From positions 13,856,633 to 13,920,632 of the forward strand of contig OZ037769.1 in NCBI GenBank assembly GCA_964035545.1: a stretch of DNA of 64,000 bases. The letters run 5' to 3'. Numbering within the stretch: the first letter of the stretch is position 1; every line of letters starts with the position of its first letter. The stretch is from Bugula neritina. Taxonomy: Eukaryota; Animalia; Bryozoa. The notes below the pieces were generated by a model that was given only the letters and a program-made list of their open reading frames with translations, did not search any database and was not told where the DNA came from. The position numbers and the translations under genes were made by a program. Shown here piece by piece: positions 4,176-45,894 of this stretch.

Positions 4176-4865
4176 CTGAACTCCCTCTTCAGGCCTTACT
4201 CTCGCAGAGAGTACCTCCCTTGTTTGGGTCGCGAAGGAGGTCTCTTGGTGTCACATATTCTGAGTGGACATATACCTATAGACTTACCGGGTTTTTCCTA
4301 ATGATTATACACGAATGTTCATAAATATTCTAGACTGATCAAAGAGATGGGTCATTGTTCATTGTTATTGTTTTCATTAGTCATGTTAACTACTGCCCAG
4401 CAATGTAAACAAGGTGTTGCGCAATAATTGCGAAATAACCATGGAAATTCCAATGTTTTGTTTTGTTTTGATTTTCTATAAATAGTATTGGCATGTGGGG
4501 AATGTTTTCTACTAGAATCTTCTATACTGGAATGCTTGAGAATGTTCTAGAGTGTTTTGTTTACTATAAATACTGAGGCAGTTGCGTTTACAAATCAGTT
4601 CATTTTTATAAATTCATCTGTGCATATCTTACTAGAGAAATAAAGTCTACTCATATTCACAACTCTATATACTCTCAACTGGATTAGCAAGCTGTATGCT
4701 ACTTGTCTATACACTTCTGACTACCAGACTTTTCGAACTCGTCACACTGCTACCAACAGTTTTGTGACAATTGGGGGCTGCTCCGGGAAGTCTCAGTCGC
4801 ACACAGGGAAGTTATTAGTTACAACGTGAGTATACACAGGATTAATTAACAGTTGTTGAGACATT

Positions 4866-8027: not shown

Positions 8028-8524
8028 CTCAGAATTTTAAGTAGTAAGGAGAAATTATCAAAATAATTTCTCTTAGAATGGGGGGTTGTCACAAATTCTG
8101 AGTGGACATATACCTATAGACTTACCGGGTTTTTCCTAATGATTATACACGAATGTTCATAAATATTCTAGACTGATCAAAGAGATGGGTCATTGTTCAT
8201 TGTTATTGTTTTCATTAGTCATGTTAACTACTGCCCAGCAATGTTAACAAGGTGTTGCGCAATAATTGCGAAATAACCATGGAAATTCCAATGTTTTGTT
8301 TTGTTTTGATTTTCTATAAATAGTATTGGCATGTGGGGAATGTTTTCTACTAGAATCTTCTATACTGGAATGCTTGAGAATGTTCTAGAGTGTTTTGTTT
8401 ACTATAAATACTGAGGCAGTTGCGTTTACAAATCAGTTCATTTTTATAAATTCATCTGTGCATATCTTACTAGAGAAATAAAGTCTACTCATATTCACAA
8501 CTCTATATACTCTCAACTGGATTA

Positions 8525-13874: not shown

Positions 13875-14037
13875 TAACACCAATCAATTATAAACACATG
13901 TTACTACTACGAGTCCCTGCTCTCAACAACACATGGTTTCTGCTGGCTAACCCGCGAACAGTCACTTGACAGGAAGCTTGCCTTCCGGTCCCTCTGGTTG
14001 GCTCGTAGCACATAGCTATAAGTATTCCCATACAGGA

Positions 14038-17000
14038 TGTTCGGTGTTCATGTAAACATTTATTTCTAATTTGTTATTTTATTATTTTACTATTTTTTGT
14101 CATAATCTTAATAATTAATTGTATCACTTATTGTAATAGTTTTAGTATTTTCGTGTATATATATTGTGGTAATAAATCACGGCTTCGGCCTCTTACGTTT
14201 ATCAACTAACTCGAGCACGTTCTGTCTTTTCACGATAGCTGAAATAATATCACAAATCAACATAAAACATGGTGCCCCGAGTCTAATTATTATTAATATT
14301 ACACTGAAATAACATGGAGCAATTACTAGCGCCAAAACCATTAGCAGATGGACCGAATTTACCTGAGGAATGGAAGATTTTTAAACGTGACTTCGAACTT
14401 TTTTTAACGGCCACATCGAAAGATACAGCCGAAGGCAAAGTGAAAACTGCATACCTACTTAGAACTATCGGTCGCCGAGGCAACCAAATATACGACTCTT
14501 TCAACTGGACTGACAACAATGACAAAACTGACTATGACAAAGTTGTGACGCAGTTTGATGACTACTGCAAACCAAGAATAAACTTAGTGGCTAAGACTCA
14601 CTCACTACTGACTTGTAAGCAAGGAAATAGAACTATTGACGAATTTTTGACTGAACTACATACCATTGCAGGACTATGTGACTTAAAAGACATGTACAAC
14701 CGACTGATACTACAGGCACTGATACTGGGAATTGAAAGTGACAAGATTAGAAAGAAACTGTTTGACTTGACTGACTTTGACAAAGCAATTGAACTCTGCA
14801 GACGAGAAGAAGCATCGGCTATTGACTACAAGACTATGACTAAGGATAACACATATGGACTCGAACAAGTGAACTTGGTAAAACATAGACCTCCGACTCA
14901 TCAATATCACTCTAATGACACTCGTAACACTGATAAACACAGAGGACAACTTTCACACACTCACTCTCAGCCCAACGTCAGAAAATCAGTTGGTGCTTCT
15001 AGGTGTGGAAACTGTGGAGGCAATCACCCACCTCGAGCATGCCCAGCATATGGGAAACAGTGCAATCATTGCAAGAAATTTAACCACTTTGCTGCATACT
15101 GCAGGTCACGCATGCATCATTATCGCGACTCAACCGAAACAGCCAATCAAGTCACCTGGAATTACTCTTCAGACAGTGACTCTCAACATGTAAGTACTAT
15201 CTCCACTACTGTACGAGATCGTAAATTATTAGCGATGCTCACTGCTAAGCAAGCAGATACTATTTATGACATTGAATTCCAACTTGACACTGGTGCATCA
15301 TGCAATACTTTGAATACGATCGACTACGACAAGCTAGGTAGACCGAAACTTACACCGACTGATACTGTACTAACTTTGTATGACCAGAGCAAGTGTGCAC
15401 CACTAGGGTGGACACGGATACAGATACTAAACAAGCAAGGATGTTACACTACATTAAAATTCCTAGTTGTGGAAACCACCCAACATAGCTTGCTGTCATG
15501 GAAATCATGTTTGCACCTGGATTTATTACAAATGCCCAGCACCAAAAGCGAGAATGTAAACTTTGCCACTACTGACCCAGACCTTCAGACTTTACTGACT
15601 AACTTTGATGACATATTTACCGGACTTGGAAAGTTTGAACAGGAATATAGGATAGAGCTAAGACCTGAAGCTGTACCAGTGCAAGTCCGACCGCGGAAGG
15701 TGCCCTTGTCGATGAAATCAGATCTCATCAAGACTATTCTTGAACTAGAACAACGTCAAATTATCGCTAAGGTAGAAGCACCTACAGACTGGATAAGCCA
15801 TCTACAACCAGTGCGCAAGCCTAATGGAAAGATACGCATCTGCATAGATCCGCAAAATCTCAATCAAGCAATTAAACGAAACCACGCTGTCATGCCAACA
15901 TTGGAAGATGTTTTGCCACAACTCAACGGTGCCAAGTTTTTCTCCTTGTGTGACGCCAAAGAAGGTTTCTATCAAATTCCCCTAGCTGAGGAATCTACAG
16001 ACTTGACAACTTTCTGGACTCCCATAGGAAAGTACAAGTACCTAAGGCTACCCTTTGGAATTGCATCAGCGCCGGAGGAGTTTCAGAGAAGGCTCACGGA
16101 AAATCTTGCTGGTCTTGATGGCATCACCATAGTTGCAGATGACATCCTAATTTTTGGAAGCACAAGGAAAGAGCATGATAGAAACCTTGAAGCGCTCTTC
16201 AAACGTGCTCGACAGACAGGACTGAGACTGAACAAGGAAAAATCCCGCTTCCTTCAGGACGAACTACCTTACATTGGACACATACTGACAACTAATGGAC
16301 TTAAACCAGATCCTAACAAAGTAAAAGCCATTCTTAAGATGAAACCTCCCTCATCTCCACAGGGAGTAAAACGATTCCTTGGTCACATCACATACATGTC
16401 AAAATTTATTAGCAACCTAGCATCGGAATCTGAACCATTACGACGTTTACTGACACAAGACAATGCTCAAGACTTTCACTGGACTGACGACCAAATGAAC
16501 GCTTTTAATAGACTGAAGACCTTACTAACTGACTCAGAAACTCTACAATACTTTGACTGCAACAAGCCAGTAACTATACAAACTGACGCTTCAAATGCTG
16601 GTGTGGGTGCAACACTCATGCAAGGAGGCAAGCCTGTAGCATATGCATCTCGCAGTTTAACAAAATCGGAACAGAACTATGTGCCACTAGAGCTTGAGTG
16701 CCTTGCCATAGTGTTTGGCACTGAACGCTTTGACCAGTATATCTTTGGTCACCATGCTGTCACTATCCAAACTGACCACAAACCCCTTGTATCTATTTTC
16801 AGGAAATCCATTCATAAGGCATCTCGGAGGTTGCAGGCTATGCTTCTTCACTTACAAAGATACCCCAACATTAAGGTAACTTGGCAAAAGGGTGCTGAAC
16901 AGATCACGGCTGACTTACTCTCAAGAGACTCATACTTTGACTCCCCCAACTATCAACAACTACCAGAACACATTTTTCACATTGACTCTCAAAATAATGA

Positions 17001-18537
17001 TGCTCCTGTTTGTGACGACTTAATTGACAACATTAGGACTGCTACTGCACAGGACAATGAACTTATGACACTGACAAACCTTATTAAACATGACTGGAAC
17101 ATTGCCAACTGCACAACTCACGACAAGTACAAACACTTTCAGGACGAACTATCTATTGACAATGGCATTGTTTACAAAGGACTACGAGCCATTATTCCAA
17201 AGACACTCCAGAGAAAGTTTCTCCAACTACTTCACACCGGCCATAATGGGATTAACTCCACACTAAGACGTGCCCGCCACACAGTGTTTTGGCTTGGCAT
17301 CACCAATGACATCAAAAACAATATTGCTAACTGTCGACAATGTCAACTGGATGCTCCCCGGCAACAGAAGGAAACACTTTTACTCCACACAGTTCCCCAA
17401 CAACCCTGGACCAAAGTAGGAATTGACTTGTTTGAATACAATCACACTCACTACATTACTATTGTTGACTATACGACTGACTACCTTGAATATGACCGAC
17501 TGGACAACCAAACAGCAGAGGCTGTTATCAACTCCATAAAGCGCTGTTTTGGACGCCTGGGAATACCCAGACAGGTTCACACTGACAACGGACCACAGTT
17601 TACCTCGCACCAGTTTTCCACTTTCAGCCAATCATGGAATTTCACACACACCACCAGCTCTCCATATCATCCTCAGTCCAATGGGAAGGCAGAGTCTGCT
17701 GTGAAGATAGCCAAACGTATACTCCGCAGATGTGAAGAGCCCGAACTTGCGTTACTGGAACATCTCAACACCACCAAAGAAGGCCTGACGGCCAGCCCAA
17801 TTCAGCAACTTATCGGAAGACCCACCAGGTCAGTACTCCCACAAGTTCGGCCAGAAACAGAGAACAACCAAGGTTGGTGGGAAAAGCAGGGCCGCAATGA
17901 AAAACTGCAGCAGAGATGCAATGACGGTGCAAGAGATTTGGCAGTGCTGAAAGAAGGGCAACCAGTTTTGGTTCGAGACTGGAGTCAGCACCGGAGAAAA
18001 TGGCAGGAGGCGCAAATTAACAAACAATTGAGTAGCAGAGCCTATGCCATACAACTTAACAACAACCTCTTTCGGAGAAACCGGCGAGACATCAGACCAC
18101 TCGTCACGGAGCCAGCGAGTCCTGAGACACCAAAGGATCCTAAACAAAACGCTAGTAGTACCCAGGTTGACACCACCGAGAGCGCCAATCATAGCGACAA
18201 TCTAAGACGTTCAACCAGAGAACGGAAGCCACCTAGTTGGATGGCAGACTATGTGCCCTCTTAAAACAATCATATCTAAATAGCTTTTTTCTATTCTGTG
18301 GGAGATGTTCGGTGTTCATGTAAACATTTATTTCTAATTTGTTATTTTATTATTTTACTATTTTTTGTCATAATCTTAATAATTAATTGTATCACTTATT
18401 GTAATAGTTTTAGTATTTTCGTGTATATATATTGTGGTAATAAATCACGGCTTCGGCCTCTTACGTTTATCAACTAACTCGAGCACGTTCTGTCTTTTCA
18501 CGATAGCTGAAATAATATCACAAATCAACATAAAACA
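14038..18537 (+). mobile_element. Intact Gypsy (Mag-like) LTR retrotransposon C
   Basis: 232-bp LTRs 14038-14269 and 18306-18537, identical by eye; TSD CAGGA; PBS TGGTGCCCCGAG (elongator tRNA-Met type); single ORF. Confidence 0.96.
14314..18264 (+). CDS. Gag-Pol polyprotein of element C
   Basis: 1316 aa uninterrupted: two Cys/His knuckles, FQLDTGA protease, IRICIDP/ADDILIF RT, QTDAS RNase H, HHCC and GIDLF/HTDNG/NGKAE integrase. Confidence 0.96.
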   Translation: MEQLLAPKPLADGPNLPEEWKIFKRDFELFLTATSKDTAEGKVKTAYLLRTIGRRGNQIYDSFNWTDNNDKTDYDKVVTQFDDYCKPRINLVAKTHSLLTCKQGNRTIDEFLTELHTIAGLCDLKDMYNRLILQALILGIESDKIRKKLFDLTDFDKAIELCRREEASAIDYKTMTKDNTYGLEQVNLVKHRPPTHQYHSNDTRNTDKHRGQLSHTHSQPNVRKSVGASRCGNCGGNHPPRACPAYGKQCNHCKKFNHFAAYCRSRMHHYRDSTETANQVTWNYSSDSDSQHVSTISTTVRDRKLLAMLTAKQADTIYDIEFQLDTGASCNTLNTIDYDKLGRPKLTPTDTVLTLYDQSKCAPLGWTRIQILNKQGCYTTLKFLVVETTQHSLLSWKSCLHLDLLQMPSTKSENVNFATTDPDLQTLLTNFDDIFTGLGKFEQEYRIELRPEAVPVQVRPRKVPLSMKSDLIKTILELEQRQIIAKVEAPTDWISHLQPVRKPNGKIRICIDPQNLNQAIKRNHAVMPTLEDVLPQLNGAKFFSLCDAKEGFYQIPLAEESTDLTTFWTPIGKYKYLRLPFGIASAPEEFQRRLTENLAGLDGITIVADDILIFGSTRKEHDRNLEALFKRARQTGLRLNKEKSRFLQDELPYIGHILTTNGLKPDPNKVKAILKMKPPSSPQGVKRFLGHITYMSKFISNLASESEPLRRLLTQDNAQDFHWTDDQMNAFNRLKTLLTDSETLQYFDCNKPVTIQTDASNAGVGATLMQGGKPVAYASRSLTKSEQNYVPLELECLAIVFGTERFDQYIFGHHAVTIQTDHKPLVSIFRKSIHKASRRLQAMLLHLQRYPNIKVTWQKGAEQITADLLSRDSYFDSPNYQQLPEHIFHIDSQNNDAPVCDDLIDNIRTATAQDNELMTLTNLIKHDWNIANCTTHDKYKHFQDELSIDNGIVYKGLRAIIPKTLQRKFLQLLHTGHNGINSTLRRARHTVFWLGITNDIKNNIANCRQCQLDAPRQQKETLLLHTVPQQPWTKVGIDLFEYNHTHYITIVDYTTDYLEYDRLDNQTAEAVINSIKRCFGRLGIPRQVHTDNGPQFTSHQFSTFSQSWNFTHTTSSPYHPQSNGKAESAVKIAKRILRRCEEPELALLEHLNTTKEGLTASPIQQLIGRPTRSVLPQVRPETENNQGWWEKQGRNEKLQQRCNDGARDLAVLKEGQPVLVRDWSQHRRKWQEAQINKQLSSRAYAIQLNNNLFRRNRRDIRPLVTEPASPETPKDPKQNASSTQVDTTESANHSDNLRRSTRERKPPSWMADYVPS

Positions 18538-18948: not shown

Positions 18949-19122
18949 TACTTATTTGTTTAATTTACACAGAAAAGTGGCAGGGGAAAATAACTCGAAA
19001 CAGTAACAGTAACAAAAACAAGTGTGCTTGATTTCCACAACACTATATTATTGAGTTACAAAGGTGTTTCAAGCACATGTTTTTAGTAACTTTATACATG
19101 CCACTATAATAATAATTCATAT

Positions 19123-21179
19123 TGTCGAACAAAAATTTAAAAATAATTAAAATAAAAATTAAAAATAAACTTTGCAATTTATAATTGATAACTGAATTAA
19201 ATAACTGAATTAAATAATTGAATCGGATTAAATTGAACCTCTGGTTTAGTCAGATTGGTCAGTTAAAATGAAGCGAAGTTACTTATTAGCTTTTAGTTTC
19301 AAAATTTCTATATAATTTGCAATTGATTAATCAAAAACAAGAGTTATCTTTGCTCGACAAATATTATGGTTTGGAAATCATGTAGTAATGTATATATGTG
19401 GTTCTATGTATATTGTGTAATGGTTAGCACTCAGGCTAATATTCTGTGAGACAAATTTGGGATTTGCTCCCTCAGAAGAATTGAAATTATAATATATATG
19501 TGTTGTATAATATGTATATCTATTTGATAATAATATTGAAGCAAGCAAATTACAATAATAAAATATTACAAGAAATTAGCCAAACCAAAACAAAGATTGT
19601 CCTAGCGACCCTTTGAAATCTTGCTGTGTTATACTAGCAACAGAAATAGCTAAGTTTGACAATTGGGATAGAAAGGCTTATACAAAATTGAATACACAAT
19701 GAGAATTGCAAGTAGAACATCAATATTAAAATATATGCTTTAACATAAACTCATACAGCCTTGAAATAAATTCTTCAATATAAATTAGTGCAGCTTTAGA
19801 ATTCAAATATTTTCTCAATCCAAATATTTTCTCAAGTATAAATTTGTGCAGCTTTAAAATTCAAATATTTTTTCAATGTAAATTTATGCAGCTTTAAAAT
19901 TCAAATATTTCTTCAATGTAAATTTGTGTAGACTAGAAACAAATTTCTCAATTCAAATATAAATTTATGCAGCTCTTTTTTTTTTAAATTCAAATACTTT
20001 CTCAATCCAAATATTTCTCAAATATAGATTTGTGTAGACTAGAGACAAATTTCTCAATTCAAATATTTCTCAAATATAAATCTGTGCAGCTTTGACATAA
20101 ATTTTCTCAATTCAAATGTTTCTCAAATAAATTTGTGCTGCTTCAGAATCAATAAATCAAATCAACAGATTTCTTAAAATAAATTTGTGCTGCTTCAGAA
20201 TCAATAAATCAAATCAACAATTTGTGCTGCTTCAGAATCAATAAATCAAATCAACAATTTGTGCTGCTTCAGAATCAATAAATCAAATCAATAATTTCTT
20301 AAAATAAATTTGTGCTGCTTCAGAATTAAAAGAACATTGATAAACTTGTTAGTTCAAATAGCGTAGTACAAGAAGTTAATACATAAACATATCCATAAAA
20401 AAAATTGTAATATTACTTACTGCAATCAATATGTGTATTGTCAGTCTCTTGAAATTTCCCTTAGCGTTAGCAATTACTATTATTACTGTTATTACTAATA
20501 AGTATATATTTTGTATTCCGATTATCTTTGTATACCAATTAATTAATTACTCGATTACATGATTTTCCAGAGACCCGGTGGCTCCTTTTATATCGGATCT
20601 TCTTGGCGGTGGTTCAGATTTCAAGGATACCGGCAACAACTGGTGAAAACTGGCCGACGAAAACTGGCGGCAGAAATTGACGCAGAATTCGGTCAGGTAT
20701 GTTGTTGTTTACAGCCAAGATGGGGATTGACGTAAGAGGATCTGCTGTTGTTGACTCATCTTTGTATTTTGTAGGCTATATCATCGTTAATTGTACCTCA
20801 GTCTATAATTTGAAGAATAATTTTTGACTATAATATGGTAAAATATATCAGCCAATGGTCACGTGTTGATCTCTATAATAGGCTATATTAATGTTAAATA
20901 ATTTATTAAGCATCTAAATTGTTGTATATCATCTATATGTTGGCATGAATAAATATTCACACATATACATGTATATCTCTATTTGTAAACAGCATCTATT
21001 ATATGTTTCAGCTTTTTACCTATTTCCATTTGTTCAGCAATTAGTGTTTTATTTCAAAAGTCAGTATCACAAATTTCAACACGTGATCATGGCATGTAGT
21101 ACTGTAATTACTTATCCAAAAAGCCACATACTACTAGATAATATTATTTGCATTGCCACAAAGCTATAAATTCATGTGC

Positions 21180-21218
<39 letters not shown>

Positions 21219-22140
21219 AATGTATTAATGCATTCTTTGTTTAGAGCAACTTCTGTGCAAAACCAAGATGTCTAACTCACTCAAAACTTGTACATTTAAA
21301 CATTAACTTTACTCAATTATTGAGCCTCATGTATCCTATTACTTGAATGTACTTATACTCTTTCTTGAATGTTGTAGATAAATTGTAGTCTACATACCGT
21401 GATGGAGCAGATATAATAATTTATAATTGCATCAACCTGCTACAGCAGCTATCTCACTGAAAGTCTCAAGCAAACGTCAGCATCGCCGAAGCCATATTTT
21501 AATAAGCTGGCAGAACATCTCAGATACACAACTTGTGAAGTACAGAAGTAAGAATTAACATAAGAGAACAGTATATGTATAATCATGCATCCTACCGAGA
21601 ATATAGTTTTTTAAGAATTTTCTGAGAACAATGGTAATATATATATATCAATACTTTTAGTTTAATCACTTATGACATAATTTATAGAAATTCTACTTCT
21701 AACATTATTGCAAAATGTTTCCCGCAATCCTTGCAAACTTGTAGAAATGAGGCTATCTAACATTTCTATTTTGTTTATATTAGCGAATAGTTTCAGTCTT
21801 TATATCGGTCACCATGAGGATACAATTGCTTTGACATTTCTATTCCCATCAATAAAATAAGCATTTTCTACGTAAGAGAGAAACTATGTCTATTTACCTG
21901 GTAGACTATTCTGCAAGGCCATGATAGAGTTTTGACTTTGCAAGTTATTCTGCAAGGCCATGATAGAATTTTGAATTTCCTCTCCACTACTTTTACTAAA
22001 ACTCTTAAGCTATACTCCTATATTCAAACCATTAGTTCTAATCATAACTACTATTAGCATATCATTCTGTAAAAACATTAAGTTGCTGTGCAGTATCTAC
22101 TCTGCAAAATATAAAGTACTGTGTAATCTCTGATCTGACA
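19123..22140 (-). repeat. 3' LTR of element D (~3018 bp)
   Basis: Near-identical to 28944-31964; the only difference I saw is a small indel/substitution in the first ~40 bp. Confidence 0.92.
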
Positions 22141-23534
22141 AATCCAGTATCTACTCTGCAATCAGAACGGCCTCGTTCTGAAATATCATACTTAGGCAAC
22201 ACTAACTGTAATACTTATAATAACTCAAGCTGTGTAACTTAAACTTGTAAGTGTTGGATAAAAATAAAGGTAAAACTAACAATAACTGATAAGTATTAGT
22301 ATAACATAAGGCTAAGACAAAAGTAAAAGTAAATCATAATCAATAACTGCAAAATTACAAATATTAATATATAACATAAGCAACATCTAGGTTTAAATCT
22401 AAGTCTAATGATAATATAATTATATGTAATTGTATAAATCTACTCACTCTCACATCTATATTGTCATCCTGTAAGTATATGATGAATGAATAATAAAAAT
22501 CGTACTCCTATTGATAAACTTTCCAATCATAGACTAAGGACCGAATGCTAGTAATCGTGCTAGTAACGTGGACAAGTCATTGTAAGCTCTTTAATAACAA
22601 TAATAGTGTTTTTTTTTTAACTAGTTCTAAGCAATAAATCTACTACACCAATCAGAGAGGGCCTTTGTATCGCAAAGGGAGACAACTGCATGTGCATTCG
22701 TAGTCCTAATATTGTGCGCAAGCATAATAATTATACTATTCAGTTCTCATTAGTGGTTATATTATATTGGTATACTAACGCCTGACGTTCGCATTCTAAC
22801 ATTGATGCTCTATCATTAATATTATAATGGATTAACAAGTTAAACCGATCTCAATTCTGAAAGCTTAAATTACTGAAATCCTAAAGAAAAGGTGAGCATA
22901 CTCTATTTATTGTTATTATTAAATTTCTGATTATCATGTAATGTGTTGTAATTTAATTTTAGTTTGGGCATAACTATCAAAATAGTAAAAGTTATTAGGT
23001 AACACTCGTACTCGTAGTCATATTCATATTCATTTTGATATTTAATTGCATTAATTTCAACAAGAAATAACCATATTGATATTGATATTCAGCTAGTTTT
23101 ACTTTAAAATTAATTGTAGTCAAACTTAATAAATCAATCATAGTCATAGTGTTATGCTCCTCGTAATAGTCATAGCGATTGTAGATATAAAATCAAATAA
23201 TAAATTGACAACTTGAACTTATTCATAACCAATAATCATATAGTTATATTGATTAACTTCAAGTGATAATTACTTTATGGCGATGGCAATAATGCCCGCA
23301 ATGCATTAAGTTATACTTATAAAGTTGTAGTTATCATAGATTATTAATATCAGTGCCATAGCATCAGCCTAGTGAGTAGTTTCGCTTGTTTACTGTATAA
23401 ATTTAATATGGTTTTAATCTCATCAAAATCTATTTAAGCAATAATTATCTTATAGTTATTAGTCGAGTAAAACTTAAAGTGAAGTAACATCAAAAATATC
23501 TTTCCCAATAGAATTATCAAGAGTTTATCTTAAC

Positions 23535-23900
23535 ATCATCTATCATCAAGAACATTGTCTTGGAATTAAAGAGACTGCAGTAAAATTAGAAATTAAAATA
23601 TTATATCACCAAGAACTCAGCTTGGAAATAATAATCATCAAGAACTCAGCTTGGAATTAGTAATCATCAAGAACTCAGCTTGAAATTAGTAATCATCAAT
23701 AATTTTATCATAAATTGAAAACACTGCAGCAAAATTAGAAACTCAAATATACCATCAAGAACTCAGTTTGGAAATAATAATAATCAATAATTTTATCATG
23801 AAATCGAAACACTGCAGTAAAATTAGAAATTCAAATATACCATCAAGAACTTAGCTTGGAAATAATAATCATCAAGAACTCAGCTTGGAAATAATAATCT
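23535..23900. repeat. Degenerate tandem repeat inside element D
   Basis: About 7 copies of CATCAAGAACTCAGCTTGGAAAT interleaved with ACTGCAGTAAAATTAGAAA units. Confidence 0.8.
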
Positions 23901-25646
23901 TATCTTAAAATTAAAATAACTACGACAAAAACCGAAAGTGGAAAGATACATTGGGAACATTCAAATAAAAGTTTACTCTTCACTTCAAAAGATAAATTCT
24001 TACAAAACTATGATTTGGTAATATTAATCATCATATGAAATTATTATAAAATTTTGTTACTCATTTTAACTGGACACAAAGGGTTATTTCATTTGATTAG
24101 TTTACATACAGCTACGAAAATAATAAAATACTTGCTTAACATTATCAACCAAATAAGCCTATTTTTTTACATTGCTTTACATTTTTCACATAAAGAATAT
24201 TGCTGTCATATAACTATTTGATTTTACTCTAAGCCACTGTTGTTGTTAGTCATGGAAGCCACTTTACTTGCAAGGTAGAAAGTTTTATCTTAATAAGTCA
24301 ACAGTCACAATGGCATAACCAAATCAAAATATCCCTCAAATACTCCAACAGGCAACTCTGCTCAACCATTAAGTATGCTTAGGTTATTACTACTTTATTA
24401 ATTCACATACTTTTTAGTCAAGCTTAGGATAAGAATCAGCAACTATATACCTAAAGATTATATGTAAGTTCCTGTAAGAATGCAAATTGCACAGTGATCA
24501 AATTTGCAATAGAGTTGGAAAAAAAACCAGAATTTTGTTGGTTTAAAGGTAATGACTGTGGTTTGCCACCAAAAATTTGGAAAGAAAGCTAGAACCTTTG
24601 TGTAATACTGACAGCTCTCATAAATTGAGGTCTAGGTATTTAAGATAAAACGTGCTGTTGGATGTCTACAGCAAACATTTGACAAGTAGATCTCGTAAGA
24701 TCTCACATCCATGCAGGCCAAGGAAGTGCCTGATCAGGTGTACAGGGATTAGCATATTAGATTTCTTTTACCTTAAAACTTTAGGCATTTTAAGTGTATG
24801 TAACCCCACCTTCTGTACGAATTTTCCAGTCAAATGTTAGGTAATACATAATATTATCATACCTTTCAGACCGAAGATGGAATTCAGCTGTTAAGTTGTC
24901 CATTAAAGGGCTTTTGTGAAAGTAGTACAACTTAGGTCCAGCCATTCATTTACAATAAAACAAAGATAATTAATAAAGCATTTTTTTCAAATTTGCAATT
25001 TTGATTTGGATATGTGCACTATGCATACATGTAGCTATCTTTAGCAAATTCTATTGATTTGATAAGTATAGTAATATAATAATAGCTATAATAATTAATA
25101 CAATAATAGCTATAATAATTAATACAACAAGGAATATAATATTGGGTATAATAATAGATTAAAATACTGGGTATAATATTGAATATAATAATAAATATGG
25201 ATGCAGTTTAAAGTCTTGGCCCAGGACTATAGCACTAATTTGTACAAGGTGTAACTAATGATCTCTGTTTTAGTTGACTGAGCAGAATGACCTACCAAAG
25301 CAGATGATAGACAAAGAGACAAGCCCATACCATAGTACTGCGACCTCAGTTCAGGTGTCGAGAAGGATCGAACAATAACCAATTGGTAAGTTTCAAGTGT
25401 ATCAGGTTACCATTCATAACTAGTAAACAGCATCCAAATTATAACCATAGTATAGAAGGTCTAGAATGATAATAGTTTGATTAAATATAGTAAGCAATGG
25501 CTGTAATTTGCAGGGTTATAAATGTAATTTAGATAAATATATTATACTACATATGTTGCTGGGTAATATAAACAATGCTCCTTTGATTCAAACCTCAAAC
25601 CCTGTTTCTTGTTCAGTCTTTCATCTCCAAGGAAGTGGAAATACAT

Positions 25647-28367
25647 TTAGATTGTTGCTTCCCATCGAGAACAGAGATAGGCTTTCTCCTGTAGTATCAG
25701 AGGCTTTGGTTTGTAGAGCTGTACAGTCATGGGAATTACCTTCTCCGTCGAATTTCCGGGATTTGGGCAGTCAATTCTTTCTGGCAGATTTAGTATCAGC
25801 GCTGGTTGGAATCTTCTGCTGTTAGCGGTGCTACATAACATTGGTTCTTCGGAATGGCCTTGAACTTTAGCTAGGCAGATTGAAATTATCATTGTCAAGG
25901 CAATGACAAATGGGATCCAGTTTGAAAAGGTCAGTCTGTTTCCACCTCCCGTGGTTTGTTGTTTTTCATCATCGTGTTTCCTGGACAAGTGTGTCAAGTT
26001 CTCCTGGTTTGTGCCTGTATCTGAGATGAGTTTTCTTTTGGGTGGATCTTCAGTAGTTGTTATTGCTTTCTTCATCTTCTCCCAACTGATAGGTGTTACC
26101 GTGACAGGCGATGTTCTGGGTGACTGAGCATCTTTTGAAGTTGGTGTATCAGGTCTTGCAACGCTGGTGATTGTTGGTATGTCATTGACTGTGCTAGAGT
26201 TGGAAGGTGTGTTTCTTGTGTAGAGATTATGCTCATCTATGAATTGTACAACACGGTCTCTAGGTTCGTTTGGTTGCTCACGTCTGCTGCGGCATGTGTA
26301 GTGGTGGTGTCCTCTTTGACCGCAATTGGTGCAGACAGGTCTTCCGTCTATGTCAAATTCTCCTCCATTGTGTTGTTGATTGTATTGGTGTGCCTGTTGG
26401 AATCTACGTTGATGTTGTTGAGATCCCTGAAATCTATTTGGAGAGGGTTGAAATCTGGCTGGTGCTTGGAATCTTCCTCGTTGCTGGAATCTAGCAGGTG
26501 GTCCTTGAAATCTGTATGATGGCTGTTGGACTCTGTATGAATGATGCTGGGCTGGCATATAACGTTGAGTTCCGGATGTATTTCCTTGGAAGTTATCTCT
26601 TCTGTTCCTCTGCCATGTAGTGTCTGGTCCTCTATAGTATGACTGGAACCTTTGCCATGTGTCTGGATCCGGTTCTCTGCTGTTGTGTTGTCTTCTAAAG
26701 CGGCTAGAGTCCTTGTGAGAGTAGAAGTCCCGATTAGGTCCAAGGGGATTCCTTCTCATGTTATCATCTCTCCATCTGTGTCTGGCTACTTCATTAGCAT
26801 AGTCTGCCTTTTCTTTCTCCCTCAGCTCTAAGGCTTTCAAGCTTCTTTTGAGTGACTCAATCTCCTGGTCCTTCTTCTTATCACTCTCAATCGTGTTGAT
26901 AGTTGTTTGGTTAACAACATCCTGCAATAACAATTGATTGGTATGCTCGTATCTCTGAGCAACCTTGAACGCTTCATCAGAGGAAGTGATTTGGCTATTA
27001 TTTAGCATCCCACGCTGGAAAGTGATGGGGAGCCCTTTTATGAATTGGGCCAATATAATTTGGTCCCTGGCATGTTCATCAATGTTAGGATAAGCTCGCT
27101 TCGCCATTGCACATATAGTGGAGTAGAACTTTCCAACTGACTCTGTATCCAGCTTCTTCCTGCTATTCAAGTCAAAGCTTGGCACTACTCCTCCTGAGTT
27201 GATGAACTCTTGATCCATCTCCTGTATTAGTCCGTAGAAGTCTTCATTGAGGCTAGGATATTGGTTTATTATCTTAGTGTAAGTTATCTTAGCACCATCT
27301 TTAAGATATAGTGCTAGGATCTTGGGCCAGGATTCTTCTGGGATAGAGAGAGCTCTGGAGTGCATGATGAAATTCTCCTTGAACTCGTTCCAGGTCAACT
27401 CGTCGAGTGGACTGTTGGCCCATTTTTCCACATCTGGAAGTCTGTTTGTCACTGCGATGATCTGTTGCTTGACTGGCATTGTTTGAGATATTGGAGTGAC
27501 AGATCTTGCTCCATAATGGGCATTTCTTCTGTGTTTGTAATCATCTTCTTTGTATCTCCTGTCATCTTCCAATGAGAGCCTGGGATAGTGGGAGTTGCCC
27601 TTCTTTGCCGAATGTCTGTTATCATGTTCTTGCGAAGGGAGATAATGTTGGGATTGGGGAAACAATTCCATGTCAGGTGAAGGTTGTCTTCTCTCATCAG
27701 GTTGTGAGCTTCTGTGTTTACTGGGATTAAGGGGTAGCCATTCATCCTCGGAGTCGTCTGAAAGACATTCATGTAGTTGTGTTCCATAATAATAATCCCT
27801 CCTCTTTGAAGGCTGGGCCAGCATATGGCTATATTCGTCTCCTTCACTTCTATGTTTCAAGATAGATTGTCTTTTCCTTTTGGATTGATGATATTCTGGC
27901 TCTTCCTTGTCAAGGGAGTGAGATGACCTTGATGGATGATTAATTGCTTCTGGGTATTGGAAATTCCTCCTTGTAGTTTTGGGCCTGACATCTGGTTCAG
28001 GAGAGTTGTCCCGGAATAGATCAGGGGAGTTGTCCCGGAATAGATCTGGGGAGTTGGCTTCTGATCGGTGTTGCCTTCTCCTGGGAGATGGGGATGTTTC
28101 ACAGTTGTACTCATCTACGGTCAGGAATCCTTCATCATCCTCATATTGTTGGTCACGTTCCAAGTCAGTTAGTTGTGTGGGTGGTAGTTGCGGTGGAGCT
28201 GGTACATTAGTGTCATGTTGTGGCTCCCTATAGGCATGGCGGTGTGCTGCAGCCTCCCTGGCTAAGCTTTGAAAGCTGGTAGGGGCTTGCTTTTGTTTTT
28301 GGGGCTTTTCTGGGAGTCCGGTGATACGGCGGAGCAGGTTTGATACTCCTCTGCCAGGTTTACTCAT
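25647..28367 (-). CDS. Gag-like protein fused to an internal signal peptide and truncated Env-like domain (element D)
   Basis: 906 aa from the first ATG (MSKPGRG): disordered N-terminus, gag core (WNEFKENF...LYLKDGA...ESVGKFY...FIKGLP), CTNCGQRGHHHYTC knuckle, hydrophobic WIPFVIALTMIISICLAKVQG, then Cys-containing PMLC...LPERIDCP...AYLC. Confidence 0.85.
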   Translation of the reverse strand: MSKPGRGVSNLLRRITGLPEKPQKQKQAPTSFQSLAREAAAHRHAYREPQHDTNVPAPPQLPPTQLTDLERDQQYEDDEGFLTVDEYNCETSPSPRRRQHRSEANSPDLFRDNSPDLFRDNSPEPDVRPKTTRRNFQYPEAINHPSRSSHSLDKEEPEYHQSKRKRQSILKHRSEGDEYSHMLAQPSKRRDYYYGTQLHECLSDDSEDEWLPLNPSKHRSSQPDERRQPSPDMELFPQSQHYLPSQEHDNRHSAKKGNSHYPRLSLEDDRRYKEDDYKHRRNAHYGARSVTPISQTMPVKQQIIAVTNRLPDVEKWANSPLDELTWNEFKENFIMHSRALSIPEESWPKILALYLKDGAKITYTKIINQYPSLNEDFYGLIQEMDQEFINSGGVVPSFDLNSRKKLDTESVGKFYSTICAMAKRAYPNIDEHARDQIILAQFIKGLPITFQRGMLNNSQITSSDEAFKVAQRYEHTNQLLLQDVVNQTTINTIESDKKKDQEIESLKRSLKALELREKEKADYANEVARHRWRDDNMRRNPLGPNRDFYSHKDSSRFRRQHNSREPDPDTWQRFQSYYRGPDTTWQRNRRDNFQGNTSGTQRYMPAQHHSYRVQQPSYRFQGPPARFQQRGRFQAPARFQPSPNRFQGSQQHQRRFQQAHQYNQQHNGGEFDIDGRPVCTNCGQRGHHHYTCRSRREQPNEPRDRVVQFIDEHNLYTRNTPSNSSTVNDIPTITSVARPDTPTSKDAQSPRTSPVTVTPISWEKMKKAITTTEDPPKRKLISDTGTNQENLTHLSRKHDDEKQQTTGGGNRLTFSNWIPFVIALTMIISICLAKVQGHSEEPMLCSTANSRRFQPALILNLPERIDCPNPGNSTEKVIPMTVQLYKPKPLILQEKAYLCSRWEATI

Positions 28368-28943
28368 TTTTTTTATGCTGCAAATGTACTTAGCAACACA
28401 CAAACACAATGCAGCAAGTAGCAAATAGAAGAATGTGTATATATATTGTATTTATATTTTGTGAACAAATAATTGTACTGATAAATATTTGTTGCTCTTA
28501 TTATATCAACTCTTTAATTGCAAGCAACAAAAACTGTTGGACTGGAAAAGCATGTATATACATATATAAAAATTAGTATACAGCAGTATGATAATTTTAA
28601 GTAGCTGTGTGTAGAAATATTGTTAAACAGCACTATATTATGTTTATCATACAAGTTTCAAGAATAGCCAATATAAGATAAGGTAACTCTAAACTAGTTA
28701 TAGGGTAACTCTAAACTAATTATAATTATTACATTGAATATTTTAGTATATTTAGCATTAATTAGTTCACAGGATATATGATTTGCAGACAATGTAGCAG
28801 TAATATAAAAGCTTAGAGGATAAATATACATATATGTATTAATCAATCAAACGCAAGCAATTTATCACAGGCCCTATTAAAGAAAACTGGCTAGTATGTC
28901 CTACACAGCAAGATTTCTCTAAGCCCAACAGAAGCTCCAAATT

Positions 28944-31003
28944 TGTCGAACAAAAATTTAAAAATAATTAAAATAATTAAGATTAAAAATAAACTTTGCA
29001 ATTTATAATTGATAACTGAATTAAATAACTGAATTAAATAATTGAATCGGATTAAATTGAACCTCTGGTTTAGTCAGATTGGTCAGTTAAAATGAAGCGA
29101 AGTTACTTATTAGCTTTTAGTTTCAAAATTTCTATATAATTTGCAATTGATTAATCAAAAACAAGAGTTATCTTTGCTCGACAAATATTATGGTTTGGAA
29201 ATCATGTAGTAATGTATATATGTGGTTCTATGTATATTGTGTAATGGTTAGCACTCAGGCTAATATTCTGTGAGACAAATTTGGGATTTGCTCCCTCAGA
29301 AGAATTGAAATTATAATATATATGTGTTGTATAATATGTATATCTATTTGATAATAATATTGAAGCAAGCAAATTACAATAATAAAATATTACAAGAAAT
29401 TAGCCAAACCAAAACAAAGATTGTCCTAGCGACCCTTTGAAATCTTGCTGTGTTATACTAGCAACAGAAATAGCTAAGTTTGACAATTGGGATAGAAAGG
29501 CTTATACAAAATTGAATACACAATGAGAATTGCAAGTAGAACATCAATATTAAAATATATGCTTTAACATAAACTCATACAGCCTTGAAATAAATTCTTC
29601 AATATAAATTAGTGCAGCTTTAGAATTCAAATATTTTCTCAATCCAAATATTTTCTCAAGTATAAATTTGTGCAGCTTTAAAATTCAAATATTTTTTCAA
29701 TGTAAATTTATGCAGCTTTAAAATTCAAATATTTCTTCAATGTAAATTTGTGTAGACTAGAAACAAATTTCTCAATTCAAATATAAATTTATGCAGCTCT
29801 TTTTTTTTTAAATTCAAATACTTTCTCAATCCAAATATTTCTCAAATATAGATTTGTGTAGACTAGAGACAAATTTCTCAATTCAAATATTTCTCAAATA
29901 TAAATCTGTGCAGCTTTGACATAAATTTTCTCAATTCAAATGTTTCTCAAATAAATTTGTGCTGCTTCAGAATCAATAAATCAAATCAACAGATTTCTTA
30001 AAATAAATTTGTGCTGCTTCAGAATCAATAAATCAAATCAACAATTTGTGCTGCTTCAGAATCAATAAATCAAATCAACAATTTGTGCTGCTTCAGAATC
30101 AATAAATCAAATCAATAATTTCTTAAAATAAATTTGTGCTGCTTCAGAATTAAAAGAACATTGATAAACTTGTTAGTTCAAATAGCGTAGTACAAGAAGT
30201 TAATACATAAACATATCCATAAAAAAAATTGTAATATTACTTACTGCAATCAATATGTGTATTGTCAGTCTCTTGAAATTTCCCTTAGCGTTAGCAATTA
30301 CTATTATTACTGTTATTACTAATAAGTATATATTTTGTATTCCGATTATCTTTGTATACCAATTAATTAATTACTCGATTACATGATTTTCCAGAGACCC
30401 GGTGGCTCCTTTTATATCGGATCTTCTTGGCGGTGGTTCAGATTTCAAGGATACCGGCAACAACTGGTGAAAACTGGCCGACGAAAACTGGCGGCAGAAA
30501 TTGACGCAGAATTCGGTCAGGTATGTTGTTGTTTACAGCCAAGATGGGGATTGACGTAAGAGGATCTGCTGTTGTTGACTCATCTTTGTATTTTGTAGGC
30601 TATATCATCGTTAATTGTACCTCAGTCTATAATTTGAAGAATAATTTTTGACTATAATATGGTAAAATATATCAGCCAATGGTCACGTGTTGATCTCTAT
30701 AATAGGCTATATTAATGTTAAATAATTTATTAAGCATCTAAATTGTTGTATATCATCTATATGTTGGCATGAATAAATATTCACACATATACATGTATAT
30801 CTCTATTTGTAAACAGCATCTATTATATGTTTCAGCTTTTTACCTATTTCCATTTGTTCAGCAATTAGTGTTTTATTTCAAAAGTCAGTATCACAAATTT
30901 CAACACGTGATCATGGCATGTAGTACTGTAATTACTTATCCAAAAAGCCACATACTACTAGATAATATTATTTGCATTGCCACAAAGCTATAAATTCATG
31001 TGC

Positions 31004-31042
<39 letters not shown>

Positions 31043-31964
31043 AATGTATTAATGCATTCTTTGTTTAGAGCAACTTCTGTGCAAAACCAAGATGTCTAAC
31101 TCACTCAAAACTTGTACATTTAAACATTAACTTTACTCAATTATTGAGCCTCATGTATCCTATTACTTGAATGTACTTATACTCTTTCTTGAATGTTGTA
31201 GATAAATTGTAGTCTACATACCGTGATGGAGCAGATATAATAATTTATAATTGCATCAACCTGCTACAGCAGCTATCTCACTGAAAGTCTCAAGCAAACG
31301 TCAGCATCGCCGAAGCCATATTTTAATAAGCTGGCAGAACATCTCAGATACACAACTTGTGAAGTACAGAAGTAAGAATTAACATAAGAGAACAGTATAT
31401 GTATAATCATGCATCCTACCGAGAATATAGTTTTTTAAGAATTTTCTGAGAACAATGGTAATATATATATATCAATACTTTTAGTTTAATCACTTATGAC
31501 ATAATTTATAGAAATTCTACTTCTAACATTATTGCAAAATGTTTCCCGCAATCCTTGCAAACTTGTAGAAATGAGGCTATCTAACATTTCTATTTTGTTT
31601 ATATTAGCGAATAGTTTCAGTCTTTATATCGGTCACCATGAGGATACAATTGCTTTGACATTTCTATTCCCATCAATAAAATAAGCATTTTCTACGTAAG
31701 AGAGAAACTATGTCTATTTACCTGGTAGACTATTCTGCAAGGCCATGATAGAGTTTTGACTTTGCAAGTTATTCTGCAAGGCCATGATAGAATTTTGAAT
31801 TTCCTCTCCACTACTTTTACTAAAACTCTTAAGCTATACTCCTATATTCAAACCATTAGTTCTAATCATAACTACTATTAGCATATCATTCTGTAAAAAC
31901 ATTAAGTTGCTGTGCAGTATCTACTCTGCAAAATATAAAGTACTGTGTAATCTCTGATCTGACA
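28944..31964 (-). repeat. 5' LTR of element D (~3021 bp)
   Basis: Copy of 19123-22140; contains a minus-strand TATAAAAGG at ~30407-30415 next to a GC-richer patch. Confidence 0.92.
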
Positions 31965-34035
31965 ATATTTAGGGCTTGTAGATTAAAGATTTTATACCTA
32001 CACAGAGACTGCTGAATACTGATGACATTTGTATCTGGGCATTATAGCACACGAGCTTTCTGGGCTGTTTTGTATATAATTTGCATGTGCCAAATTAATA
32101 AAATATTTTATAACAATCCACAGTTCTTCAAAATATGAAAAGTTACCTTTAGCCTAGCTACAAAAATGAATTTTATTATCGCATGGAAGTATGTCGTGGT
32201 GCCAAACGTTTGCAAAAGCATTATGTTATCGTTGCCATTAGTAGCAAACATTTATTATGCAGTGATGCGACAGTCATCGGAATTTCCCCAAACATCGAGG
32301 GAATTTCCGTAGTGGCGACTTTCCACCTTATACGCAGTGGTTTTTCCTCCGCTTGGGAAATTCTATTATAGCATATTATAGAACGACCGTTTATCAATCC
32401 AAACATTTTCACTTGTAGTAAATATCCGCCTCTCCAAACTGAATTGCGCGTAAGAACATAACAATGGACCTTGTTTTCTGAGCCTTTGTTAGTATGAAAA
32501 ATTATTCTGGTTGTATTGTTTATTTTTGTTTACAGAGATAGTTATAGGGGGGTTAAACTCATGTGATTGCGGAATACAACTGTTGATACTCAATTCGTTT
32601 TGTTTTAGTTTTTTCTTCAACTTTTCGTTTTAGTTTAGGCGTTGCCGATTGTCACTATCACTGAGAGTGAGTATCAGTGTATCACTATCACTATGAGTAT
32701 GATTATGACTTTCACTATGATTATGATTGACATCATGATTGTGATTATTATTATCAATATTATTATGAATATCATGATTTAGGTTGTAGTAATCTTATTC
32801 AGATTTATTTAGTTTTTAGTAATAGCTCTGTTAAACTTAATCATAATGTTATATACTGATACTTATTTTATTTTTATTCACATTAACTTTGAGTTTGACA
32901 TTAGCGTTGCTATGCCTATAGCCCTATAGTAATAGTTATAGTATAACTATACGTAGTACTAATGGTAATAGTAATAGGCAATTAAACTTATTGTGATAAT
33001 AACAATAGAAATAACAATTTAAACTAGAGATTGCCATTCTGATTCAGTTAGTGGTCGTTTTGCTATTAAAAGTCAAAATGATAATCAGAATGTAACACTA
33101 ACAGTGGTAACTGTAGGGCTAAGTGTAACTGTAATTAACTTCTAGGCAATTTCAACTGGCTATATAACTATAGTATACTGTATACCATAGTTTGTATAGT
33201 ATAACTATATGCCATATATAGTATATGCTATATTCATTAGATACTTGAGAAAATTTATGTAGTTTAAAATTGTTACTTGACATGCATCTTCTCATCTGCC
33301 TTAAACTCTAGTAATCTTCCACATGTAGGTTTAGTAATTTACTGTAAGTTCCAATGAAATGGAAAGTTGTGTAGTGTTGTTCGAGGCCCAATAGTTATGT
33401 GGGCTTTCTAGCGAGTCTAATTAGCATTTAATCACCGATAACTCAAGGGTAGTTTCGATTAGAAGCTTTATTAAATTATATAATACAATGCAAAAAAATA
33501 TCTCTATGTATCACGGAACTTGCTACTTTACATCACTGTAATTACGCTCCAACTAACTACTGACTGTCTGTATGGCTTAATACGATTGTTATCTATAACT
33601 CTCTGTGATTGGCAGGGGGTGCGCGTGACGTGTAAACCACGCCCAATTACACCGCCCCCCCCCCAGCAGGAAGCATACCTTCCTGATATTTACCCAACAA
33701 CAACAAAAAAAATATAAAACAAAATAATAAAAAAAACAAAAATATAAAATCTGAACATCAAAAATATCACGTATAAGATTGGCATATTCCCAAAAAGAAA
33801 TTTACATGTTTGTGAGCAAAACTACGTGGGGAATGACACAATATAAACCCACGGTTTATCTACATATTGATATAAGAAAGAAAAATATAAAATAATATCC
33901 ACGTACGAAGATCATGTAGCACCGAGATCAGATACGGCCGGAGAGGGATGAGTGTGGGGAGAGAGATAACGTGTCACCACCTGCAGGTGTGAAGGGTCGG
34001 AAGAAGTGGGGAAGGAGAATAATGTCATTAAGGGT

Positions 34036-35407: not shown

Positions 35408-38400
35408 CTAGACTCTCATACCTGCTGCTTGTAACGCGGTCGCATACGAAGTTTTGGAGATAAGCTGGTGGTCGTCTAGTACGTTGCCCCCTTTCAAGGG
35501 GGGAGATGTACTAGTGGTAGACGCCGGAGAAGGTGGGGTAGCTGGTGAGGGAGGTGGTGTACTCACCAGTGGGTTGTTACACTCTACTGGTGGTGTTTCC
35601 TGCCTCCCGTCGGCTGTCATTCCCTCGTCCCCTCTGTTCCCTCCGGACGGAGCCCCTCCCGTGGGGGGGTTTTGCACTTCCGGAAGTATATTTAGTTCTG
35701 GAAGTGGTGGTGGTAGCCTTGGGGCCGGACGGCTTGGCGCTGGGGGCAGAGGGCGCGTCCCCGTTGGAGGGGGTGGCCTCTTTTGCCTTGCCAAGTCTTC
35801 TGTCCGTGGAATGACCCACTCATCATTGGGTTTATGCCGCCGCCGCCTGCGCATCGTTGTCTGCCTCCTGGGCTCTAACAATGGGGGGCACCCTCTGCCG
35901 CACCTGGGCTAGCCCAATAGGGTTTCAAGCGGGCTTCATTCTGGACAGATATCTGTCCAGACCGCTCCAGCTTGTAAGTATGATTGGGCATTGCCTCAAC
36001 TACTACGTAGGGTCCCACGAACTTAGGCTGTAGTTTAGCTGCCTGTCCTCGACGCCTACGGTAGTTGATCATCCAGACCCAGTCTCCGGTCTGGTAGAGG
36101 GGTGGCTCGTCAGCGTCTTCCTGTCGCACCTGCCACTACTTCTCCCGCAGTATTTCGTGTGCGACTCTCAGATGCTCTATCAATTCCCCAGCGTACTCGT
36201 GGACAGAGTATTCTGGCTCCGGAATATGATAGGCGAGGTGGTCGGGCACTCGTGTCTCACGACCGAGTGTCAAGAGGTTGGGGGCCTCGCCGGTGCTGGT
36301 ATGTGGCGTGCTGCGGTAGGCCCGCATGACCTGTGGTAAGACAAGATCCCATTCCTCCTGGCCTCGGCCGAGTAGTAGACTGCGGAGTGCATCGCCCAGC
36401 ATCCGGTTGTTGCGTTCGACCACCCCGTTACCCTGGGGGTGGTATGGAGTGGTCCTGCTTTGGTTTACTCCCCAGAGGCGACAGAGGTCGCTCATCAGTT
36501 GAGACTGGAAATGCGACCCCTGATCCGAGTGTAGTTGCTCGGGCAGCCCAAAGTAGCAGAACGCACGCTGGTCTAGTGTGCTGGCCACTGTCGGGGCAGA
36601 CGCATCCGGGATGGCCAGAGCGTCGGCCCACCTAGTGAAGTGGTCGGTCAGCACTAGGATTCAACTGTTTCCTCTGGGGGTGATGGGCATGGGTCCGACC
36701 AAGTCAACAGCTACCACCTGCCAGGGCCTGCCAGCATATAGCCTACGTCGTCCCGCTTCTCCAGGGGGACGGCCATGCTTGCTGGCCTGGCAGATTTCGC
36801 ATTGCTTGATCCTTAGTCGGACGTCACGCTCCATGTTGGGCCAATACCACCGGAGCCTTAGCTTGGTAAGCACCCTCCGGACTCCGGCGTGAGCCTGCCG
36901 GTGAGTGTCCCATACTAGCTCCCGGCGCATGGCGGCTGGGCAGATCACTCGTTTTCGACCAGGATGTCCCCGGCCGGCGGCCAAGGTGATGGTCAGCAGA
37001 CCATCTGGCCCGATCCGCAGGGAGTCCCAGCGTTGGCAGTACAGCCGTAATTCGGCGCACTCCTGCCGCAGCTGTTCTTCGCTGGGTCGTCGCCCCTCCC
37101 GTTTAGCTCGATATATGTCGGCTACCACCCCAGGGAGGTCCTCCTGGAGTTTCTGCAGCTCCCTGACATTACGAGCTAAGACAGGGTTGGCTCGGAGATT
37201 GTTGACAGCCTCCGGTGGGTTGGGAATCCTTGGTTTGAGTTGACCTTGGTCCCAGTCGTAGCTCACTCCAGGGTGGTCCAGTTTCGCCAACTCGGATCTT
37301 GGGGGACCCCCATCCCTTCTCTCGATGTTGTGACACTGTTTACACCCCTCGTCCGGCCGCCGACTCAGTCCGTCCGCGTTGCCGTGTTTTCTACCGGGTC
37401 GATGTTCGGTCCGGTCTGAAAACTCGGCCAGGACTTCGAGCCATCGGGCGACTTGGCTGGACGGTTCAGCTCTCTTACACAGCCAAATCAAGGAGGCGTG
37501 GTCCGTCCGCAAGCGGAACGGCCTACCGTAAAAATAAGGCCGGAAGTGTTTGACTGACTTGATTACTGCCAATAACTCCTTGCGGGTAGTGCAGTAATTG
37601 CGCTCAGGGGGTGAGAGCGATTTGCTATAGTAAGCTACGACTACTTCACGGCCCTCTTGCACTTGCGACAGCACAGCACCAACGTTCTGGTCACTGGCGT
37701 CCGTGTCAAGAACGTACTCCAGAGCGGGGTCTGGGTAGGCCAGAATTGGAGCCTCTAGAAAGCGGCTCTTGAGACTGTCGAATGCCCTTGATTGGACGGA
37801 TGTCTACTGCCAGGCCACTCCCTTTGCGGTGAGCCGATTTAACGGCTGTGCAACCCCCGCAAAGTCTGGTGTGTATTGTCTATAATACCCTACCAGCCCC
37901 AGGAAGGCCCGGAGTCCGGTTAAGTCCTGGGGGGTGACTCAGTCGGCCACAGCCCGCACCTTTTCCGGGTCCGTCGCCACGCCATTACGGCCGACTACGT
38001 GCCCCAGGTACTTGACCTCCGGCTGCAAAAGAGCGCATTTGGAAGGTTTGAGTTTGAGACCGGCACCTCGGAGTCGCTCGAAGACCTCCCGCAGACGACT
38101 GACATGGGTCGTAAAGTCTGGGGAGATTACGATGACATCATCGAGGTAGACGAGCAGCGTCTTCCAGTGGAGGCCGCTGAGAACCTGTTCCATGAGCCGC
38201 TGGAAGGTAGCAGGAGCGGAAGTTAACCCGAAGGGCAGTACCTTCCACTTCCACAGCCCATCTCTGGTGATGAACGCCGCTTTCTCCTGGGCGTCGGGAC
38301 TGAGGGGGACTTGCCAGTAGCCACTCAGCAAGTCTAAAGTACTGAAGTACTTGCTGCCGGCTAAGGCGTCCAGGGATTCGTCGATCCGAAGTAGAGGGTA

Positions 38401-45843: not shown

Positions 45844-45894
<51 letters not shown>

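Follow-up and report, generated by a model that had tools for sequence, protein, structure and literature searches.

The TR-GAG elements of plants, a group of long terminal repeat (LTR) elements, code for gag only and, like the plant element Ogre, have no env ancestry. LTRs of 1.9–6.5 kb are described for Ogre (PMC6431247). From animals, non-autonomous deleted derivatives mobilised in trans have been published for the mouse (IAP 1-delta-1, ETn/MusD, and MaLR, the IAP 1-delta-1 fusion acting in cis; PMC6466679), and proviruses of the form LTR-gag-env-LTR without pol for galliforms (PMC10820513). Chicken EAV-HP is another gag-env element that lacks pol. Bryozoan errantiviruses, which are Ty3/gypsy elements, carry an envelope protein (Env) of the herpesvirus glycoprotein B (gB) type, C2b, in the order GAG-ENV-POL, and ten bryozoan elements are listed in the supplement of PMC13524379. 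In the planarian element Burro, env lies in frame between gag and pol within one polyprotein (PMC6431247). Here we analyze an LTR element without pol at positions 19123–31964 of a 64,000-nucleotide stretch of the Bugula neritina genome (hereafter the window; assembly GCA_964035545.1, contig OZ037769.1, positions 13,856,633–13,920,632 of the forward strand). In an earlier note on this DNA, made without database searches, env was taken to follow pol as a rule, the Gag-Env fusion was regarded as a novelty, and gag-only non-autonomous elements were placed mainly in plants; the works cited above do not agree with the second and third of these views, and the relatives described below do not agree with the first.

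The insertion at this locus is real and young, and the non-autonomous family to which it belongs is old and derives from a described clade. According to our interpretation, which we hold with a probability of about 80%, it is a young, multi-copy element that codes for Gag and about 15% of an Env, derives from a bryozoan errantivirus with Gag, Env, and Pol in a single frame, and uses the reverse transcriptase (RT) and integrase of an intact relative. The copying enzymes are lost, and therefore the element likely spreads by borrowing them from such a relative.

The element reads on the minus strand, as do its LTRs, coding domains, and candidate sites given below. It is bounded by a 3' LTR of 3,018 bp (19123–22140) and a 5' LTR of 3,021 bp (28944–31964), both with TG..CA ends, and is flanked by ATAT target-site duplications at 19119–19122 and 31965–31968. 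The internal region between the LTRs comprises 6,803 bp. Global alignment of the two LTRs over 3,018 aligned bases revealed 0 substitutions and 3 gap letters near one end. By our own arithmetic, flanks with about 70% AT would agree over 4 bp by chance in about 0.7% of cases. Paired LTRs with TG..CA ends and a short target duplication, a feature of errantiviruses, are thus present, and the alignment confirmed the earlier description of near-identical repeats of about 3.02 kb enclosing 6.8 kb with one long open reading frame (ORF).

Only one frame of the internal region exceeds 135 codons (28451–25647, 934 residues from stop to stop). The ORF begins with the Met at 28367, which is the start common to seven of seven close Gag-bearing relatives, and has 906 codons (25647–28367). 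In order, it comprises a disordered N-terminus, the capsid, a Q/R-rich stretch, a zinc knuckle, a linker, a signal helix, and a remnant of Env. The Gag capsid domain (residues 327–510; 26922–27473) matched Retrotrans_gag in Atlas (0.92). Its fold model had a predicted local distance difference test score (pLDDT) of 56, and the top 28 structural rows were all retroviral or retrotransposon capsids, with the best match at Z 8.8 and a root-mean-square deviation of 2.4 over 77 residues; Foldseek on this model pointed the same way, but with E values of 0.03 or worse. The capsid is followed by a long helix or coiled coil (26772–26921). The CCHC zinc knuckle has the pattern CX2CX4HX4C (residues 707–720; 26292–26333), and with it both Gag parts recognized earlier, core and knuckle, were found to be genuine.

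After a low-complexity linker (25926–26276), an internal Env signal helix (residues 843–865, the hydrophobic helix at 845–863; 25857–25925) follows in frame with Gag. The knuckle-to-signal distance is 138 residues, compared with 72–360 in relatives. Downstream, an Env ectodomain of class III (gB/rhabdovirus-G type) is represented by a remnant of about 85 codons (25601–25856), which is interrupted by a premature stop at 25649–25647; the homology to Env is cut off near 25601. Of the earlier description of this part, the in-frame signal-like stretch stood, while the supposed Cys-patterned domain corresponds to the first ~85 residues of Env, broken by the stop. The element thus retains about 85 of ~560 Env residues (~15%) and has no full gB-type Env with its set of cysteine bridges and its membrane anchor. 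Without the membrane anchor, the remnant, to judge from its sequence, would be unable to act as a fusogen. Atlas gave only leads below 0.9 for the remnant, its fold model was of low confidence (pLDDT 31), and the Env profile, searched against PDB sequences, returned a chance match only.

No trace of pol was detected. Pfam searches found 0 families in 12 of 12 frames, stops being read as X, over 22141–25649 and 28450–31964, and no family in the 906-codon ORF. With eight Pol-bearing proteins of the window as tblastn queries, nothing in the element scored better than E 0.25; the same eight queries matched other elements of the window. The lack of protease, RT, RNase H, and integrase had been noted previously, and these six-frame Pfam and tblastn searches bear it out. 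Without a full Env and without pol, the element is not an intact GAG-ENV-POL errantivirus; in the features examined it agrees with the Gag-coding non-autonomous LTR class of TR-GAG, IAP 1-delta-1, and MaLR.

The origin of the Gag-Env join was traced through relatives. A protein search with the Env remnant gave seven representatives, and one cluster contained P0018, a chain of 1,533 residues that matches both Gag (37%, E 1e-78) and the Env remnant (39%, E 6e-20). A profile scan with the Env alignment retrieved 11 loci (L001–L011); scans with P0001, P0018, or the Gag alignment as the query found no related loci. Word-based protein searches for longer relatives were empty, which is weak evidence, and the Gag search gave P0002 alone. 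In L001, a single frame with two single stops encodes the knuckle, linker, signal helix, Env, membrane anchor, protease, RT, RNase H, and integrase; the signal-to-anchor stretch of its Env is about 560 residues long. In L002, an open frame of 1,212 residues extends from Env through RNase H. Knuckle and Env are both present in five of the 11 loci, always in one frame, 72–360 residues apart and with no pol motif between them, and RT and RNase H follow in all three loci that reach far enough past Env. In this lineage env thus normally precedes pol, in frame with gag, and the order agrees with that given for Bryozoa in PMC13524379. L006 exceeds the Pfam cut-off for Monjiviricetes_fusion (39 bits vs. 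27) and L005 weakly matches herpesvirus gB, so the Env of the clade is a class III fusogen. An in-frame deletion of pol that would have joined gag to a downstream env was also considered; P0018 and the order and domains of L001–L011 rule it out. Judging from these sequences, the join is inherited and was not produced by the loss of pol.

Two side observations concern these relatives. In L001, the frame continues after integrase (~7350–8078) with another signal-like helix and a stretch patterned in Cys, which may represent a second glycoprotein, now decayed, at the place where env usually follows pol. P0023 and P0025, members of another subgroup, have a weak RNase H-like match upstream of the Env signal (E 0.04–0.07).

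The closest described elements are Bsto_errantivirus_2 and Cpal_errantivirus_7 (PMC13524379), which share with our element the homologous Env stretch, the gag-then-env order, and the host phylum. Compared by eye over 43 positions, the Env remnant was identical to the published rows at 19 (Bsto_2), 16 (Cpal_7), and 8 (Bsto_1) positions, the remaining seven bryozoan rows being inspected but not counted; P0018 agreed with Bsto_2 at 29 of 44 positions, also by eye. In contrast to Bsto_2 and Cpal_7, the element has lost most of env and all of pol. Its LTRs of 3.0 kb compare with 326–1,397 bp in the six of ten bryozoan elements with LTRs. In that source, no LTRs are called for Bsto_2 or Cpal_7, and the LTR limits were 3-kb flanks, a bit score up to 5,000, and 14-kb spacing; such limits could miss long LTRs such as those of 3 kb. 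Bugula does not appear in its text and genome list, and the text makes no mention of fused or non-autonomous elements. Burro, likened here by description, is autonomous, exceeds 30 kb, and has many additional domains (PMC6431247). The mouse elements are derived from Retroviridae and encode a Gag-Pol fusion or are non-coding (PMC6466679), whereas ours encodes Gag with an Env signal helix. The galliform proviruses lost a pol that had stood between gag and env (PMC10820513), while in our element gag and env were already joined in the ancestor and the deletion lies downstream. In the literature we covered, which is incomplete, neither this element nor any non-autonomous derivative of GAG-ENV-POL elements was found described.

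The truncation is shared by other copies. The closest protein cluster contains five B. neritina and two JGI records, and there is one further B. neritina record besides. The knuckle-to-linker join without pol occurs in all seven Gag-bearing records. In six of the eight related records (P0002, P0005–P0008, and P0016), Env homology ends at the window's own break, and the other two, P0003 and P0004, have a frameshift earlier than the shared break. Four records extend into sequence matching window positions 25397–25230 (45–46 of 56 residues); therefore, the copies share the downstream DNA too. The break at 25600/25601 was bridged by contigs in four of four sequencing runs from three studies, and run X1 contained three variants of the bridging sequence. 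Several copies with the same deletion are a feature of non-autonomous families. Since the same break is found in the runs and in the protein records, the family spread in this pol-less state, as the earlier note had suggested. The variants are about 10% apart, so the truncation is old; the LTRs are identical, so the insertion is young. These data support a multi-copy, pol-less, Gag-coding family that moved in that state.

A candidate for the helper, which the earlier note had postulated, was found in the same species. A sister family, 81–85% identical, departs from the window sequence at 25601 and continues for 1,174 nt (X7, record 19); shorter pieces of it are present in X4 and X8, and related loose ends occur at 25646 and 25868 in X1. 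In X8, record 29, its knuckle-to-Env span is 887 nt vs. 314 in the window, a difference of 191 codons. This record joins the knuckle side to the Env side, and therefore the sister family has no pol between gag and env. A sister family with a longer Env region was present in all four runs. It is a candidate helper, in which analogy with the relatives predicts pol downstream of Env. Pol and shared LTR ends were not seen in its contigs, which are 1.2–1.4 kb long.

The following mechanism is proposed. A single old loss would have removed the remainder of env together with the whole of pol from a single-frame ancestor, whose polyprotein would have had Gag in the cytosol, Env in the lumen of the endoplasmic reticulum (ER), and Pol in the cytosol again. 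RNA from the 5' LTR would be translated into Gag, which would package its own RNA with helper Pol, with a preference in cis as described for mouse IAP 1-delta-1 (PMC6466679). A degenerate tRNA-Gln-like site would prime reverse transcription, and helper integrase would generate the 4-bp duplication. Gag would be made with the Env signal helix attached. With the helix in place, Gag is predicted to start anchored to the ER membrane, as that of the parent would, and membrane tethering of Gag is plausible.

Selection was assessed by counts of protein differences, which are not ratios of nonsynonymous to synonymous change (dN/dS). Between the window and P0005, the capsid differed at 12/183 positions, the knuckle at 1/25, the linker at 12/117, the signal helix at 1/23, the Env remnant at 19/69, and the downstream stretch derived from non-coding sequence at 10/56. 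The contrast between capsid and Env remnant was strong (Fisher p 2e-5); that between signal helix and Env remnant (p 0.02) is based on small numbers and is confounded by mosaicism. Against five other copies, the window differed at 1/23 positions in the helix and 18–23/69 in the Env remnant. Other copies have lost one cysteine and one tyrosine, both of them invariant in distant Envs, and in the window copy the frame ends at the premature stop. Owing to these difference counts, the lost invariant residues, and the stop, the capsid is considered constrained and the Env remnant decaying. Over window 25650–27473, P0016 differed from the window at 5/399 positions from capsid to knuckle and at 33/185 in the linker and Env remnant. 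The window copy is, from this pattern, likely a recombinant between subfamilies.

Several results weigh against our interpretation of an errantivirus-derived family that spreads by retrotransposition with borrowed enzymes. The candidate primer-binding site has four strict mismatches to the listed tRNA-Gln end, and a canonical polypurine tract was not found at the 3' LTR border (no purine run of at least 11; the best stretch is 11/15). The hosts of L001–L011 may not be bryozoans. The pol and shared LTR ends of the sister family were not seen, its contigs being too short. Dispersal by retrotransposition rests on one insertion and four contigs of another assembly, and the B. neritina records are gene models that may hide frameshifts. 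Among the other copies, the contrast in conservation is weaker (capsid 4–12/179, Env 2–10/80), with Fisher p of 0.20, 0.004, and 0.04 in three of six non-independent pairs and one pair reversed. Against P0016, the window differs at 1/184 positions in the capsid and 21/69 in the Env remnant, and mosaicism may inflate the contrast.

The short element may not be a parasite. It could be a cooperative partner, kept because it adds to the membrane-anchored Gag from which the parent must build its capsids, since the parent yields Gag, Env, and Pol in a ratio of 1:1:1 from one frame. The single-frame parent, the conserved capsid, the lower divergence of the helix (1/23) than of the Env remnant (19/69), and the frame left open through the helix in seven of eight Gag-bearing copies, the window included, all fit this explanation, but selfish packaging in cis accounts equally well for capsid conservation, the helix comparison involves few positions and suffers from the mosaicism of the window copy, and P0003 frameshifts before the helix. 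We consider such a partnership unlikely. To the same doubtful degree, a long-lived two-part system can be imagined, in which a single-frame Gag-Env-Pol errantivirus is accompanied by a satellite that is under selection to keep membrane-anchored Gag (capsid with the signal helix of Env), supplies an excess of capsid beyond what the equimolar polyprotein of the parent can yield, and rides in the enveloped particles of the helper.

The copies could also have multiplied within a region dense in transposons, through gene conversion or through duplication, tandem or segmental, instead of retrotransposition in the pol-less state. The window is indeed packed with nested elements, two B. neritina records lie on contigs of an equal length of 23.9 kb, and the polypurine tract is not clear; the clean target duplication and identical 3-kb LTRs around a 3' region ~10% different from other copies make this origin very improbable. 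A deletion at this locus alone, after the insertion of an intact element, had been named earlier as an outcome that would overturn the proposal. Such deletions are frequent in general, which is all that speaks for it, but the same break and downstream sequence occur in other copies and runs and in an independent assembly at ~10% divergence, compared with 0 LTR substitutions here, and we regard this explanation as barely tenable. Still more remote is an assembly artefact, although near-perfect LTR identity would be expected of one: the repeats have TG..CA ends and are flanked by a target duplication, one junction carries a candidate primer site, the two copies differ by 3 letters, and an X1 contig crosses the junction at 22141. 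The non-autonomous, errantivirus-derived family therefore remains our preferred reading.

The remaining features of the element are as follows. The 5' LTR contains a patch rich in GC and CpG with TATAAA, a candidate promoter (30416–30411), and tandem arrays with units of 37, 40, and 52 bp (29641–30121). The candidate primer-binding site (28928–28939) starts with TGG four nucleotides after the 5' LTR; compared by eye with the tRNA-Gln 3' end in PMC13524379, it is identical at 8 of 12 positions, G-U compatible at 3, and mismatched at 1. A leader of 577 nt lies between the primer-site region and the ORF. Directly before the 3' LTR is a 17-nt copy of LTR positions 34–50 (22145–22161). An AT-rich non-coding 3' region of 3.46 kb (22141–25600), with tandem arrays at 23574–23899 and 25072–25198, stands in place of the remaining env and all of pol, and every bin of it was covered in four of four runs. 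Contig depths in X1, which are not copy numbers, were ~122 in the flank, 280–500 in the internal region, and 2,200–4,150 in the LTRs, and hint at many more LTR copies than internal regions. The right flank was uncovered in three of four runs and is not informative on empty sites. At 25300–25410, contig depth was about ten times that of neighboring sequence in X7 and X8 (guessed to be RNA; none of the listed runs is recorded as such) but not in X1 or X4, and in gene models of B. neritina an exon is joined at 25397; these observations hint weakly at an RNA that is spliced or separate.

Other repeats occupy much of the window. The element at 4249–8524 has 438-bp LTRs that are 99.5% alike and one ORF of 1,055 residues with a SCAN-like Gag, protease, and integrase, without an RT or RNase H match; it looks like an RT-less derivative of the Gmr1 type. 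A Gypsy element at 14036–18537, 585 bp from the element studied here, has identical 234-bp LTRs and an open Gag-RT-RNase H-integrase frame of 1,318 residues; by tblastn the Gags of the two are unrelated. Two further Gypsy copies (329–4174 and 35641–39506) are 78% alike, and their pol is frameshifted. At 44069–45856, inverted repeats of 324 bp (97%) flank a frame of 424 codons with no convincing Pfam match. Next to it, inverted repeats of 208 bp enclose a fragment of a mariner-like transposase (42502–43451). A tandem array of about 70 copies of a 22-bp unit lies at 60464–62014.

The concept is not new, Gag-coding non-autonomous LTR elements and the gag-env-pol order both being already described. 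In effect, nature has carried out a deletion experiment here, on a clade of animal errantiviruses that has received little study. The fusogen and the enzymes could be lost while the family was still spreading, and the capsid, the knuckle, the 3-kb LTRs, and possibly the signal anchor were kept. That a single frame encodes Gag, Env, and Pol, with a membrane topology predicted to alternate along it, raises the testable question of how Gag-to-Pol ratios are set in these elements.

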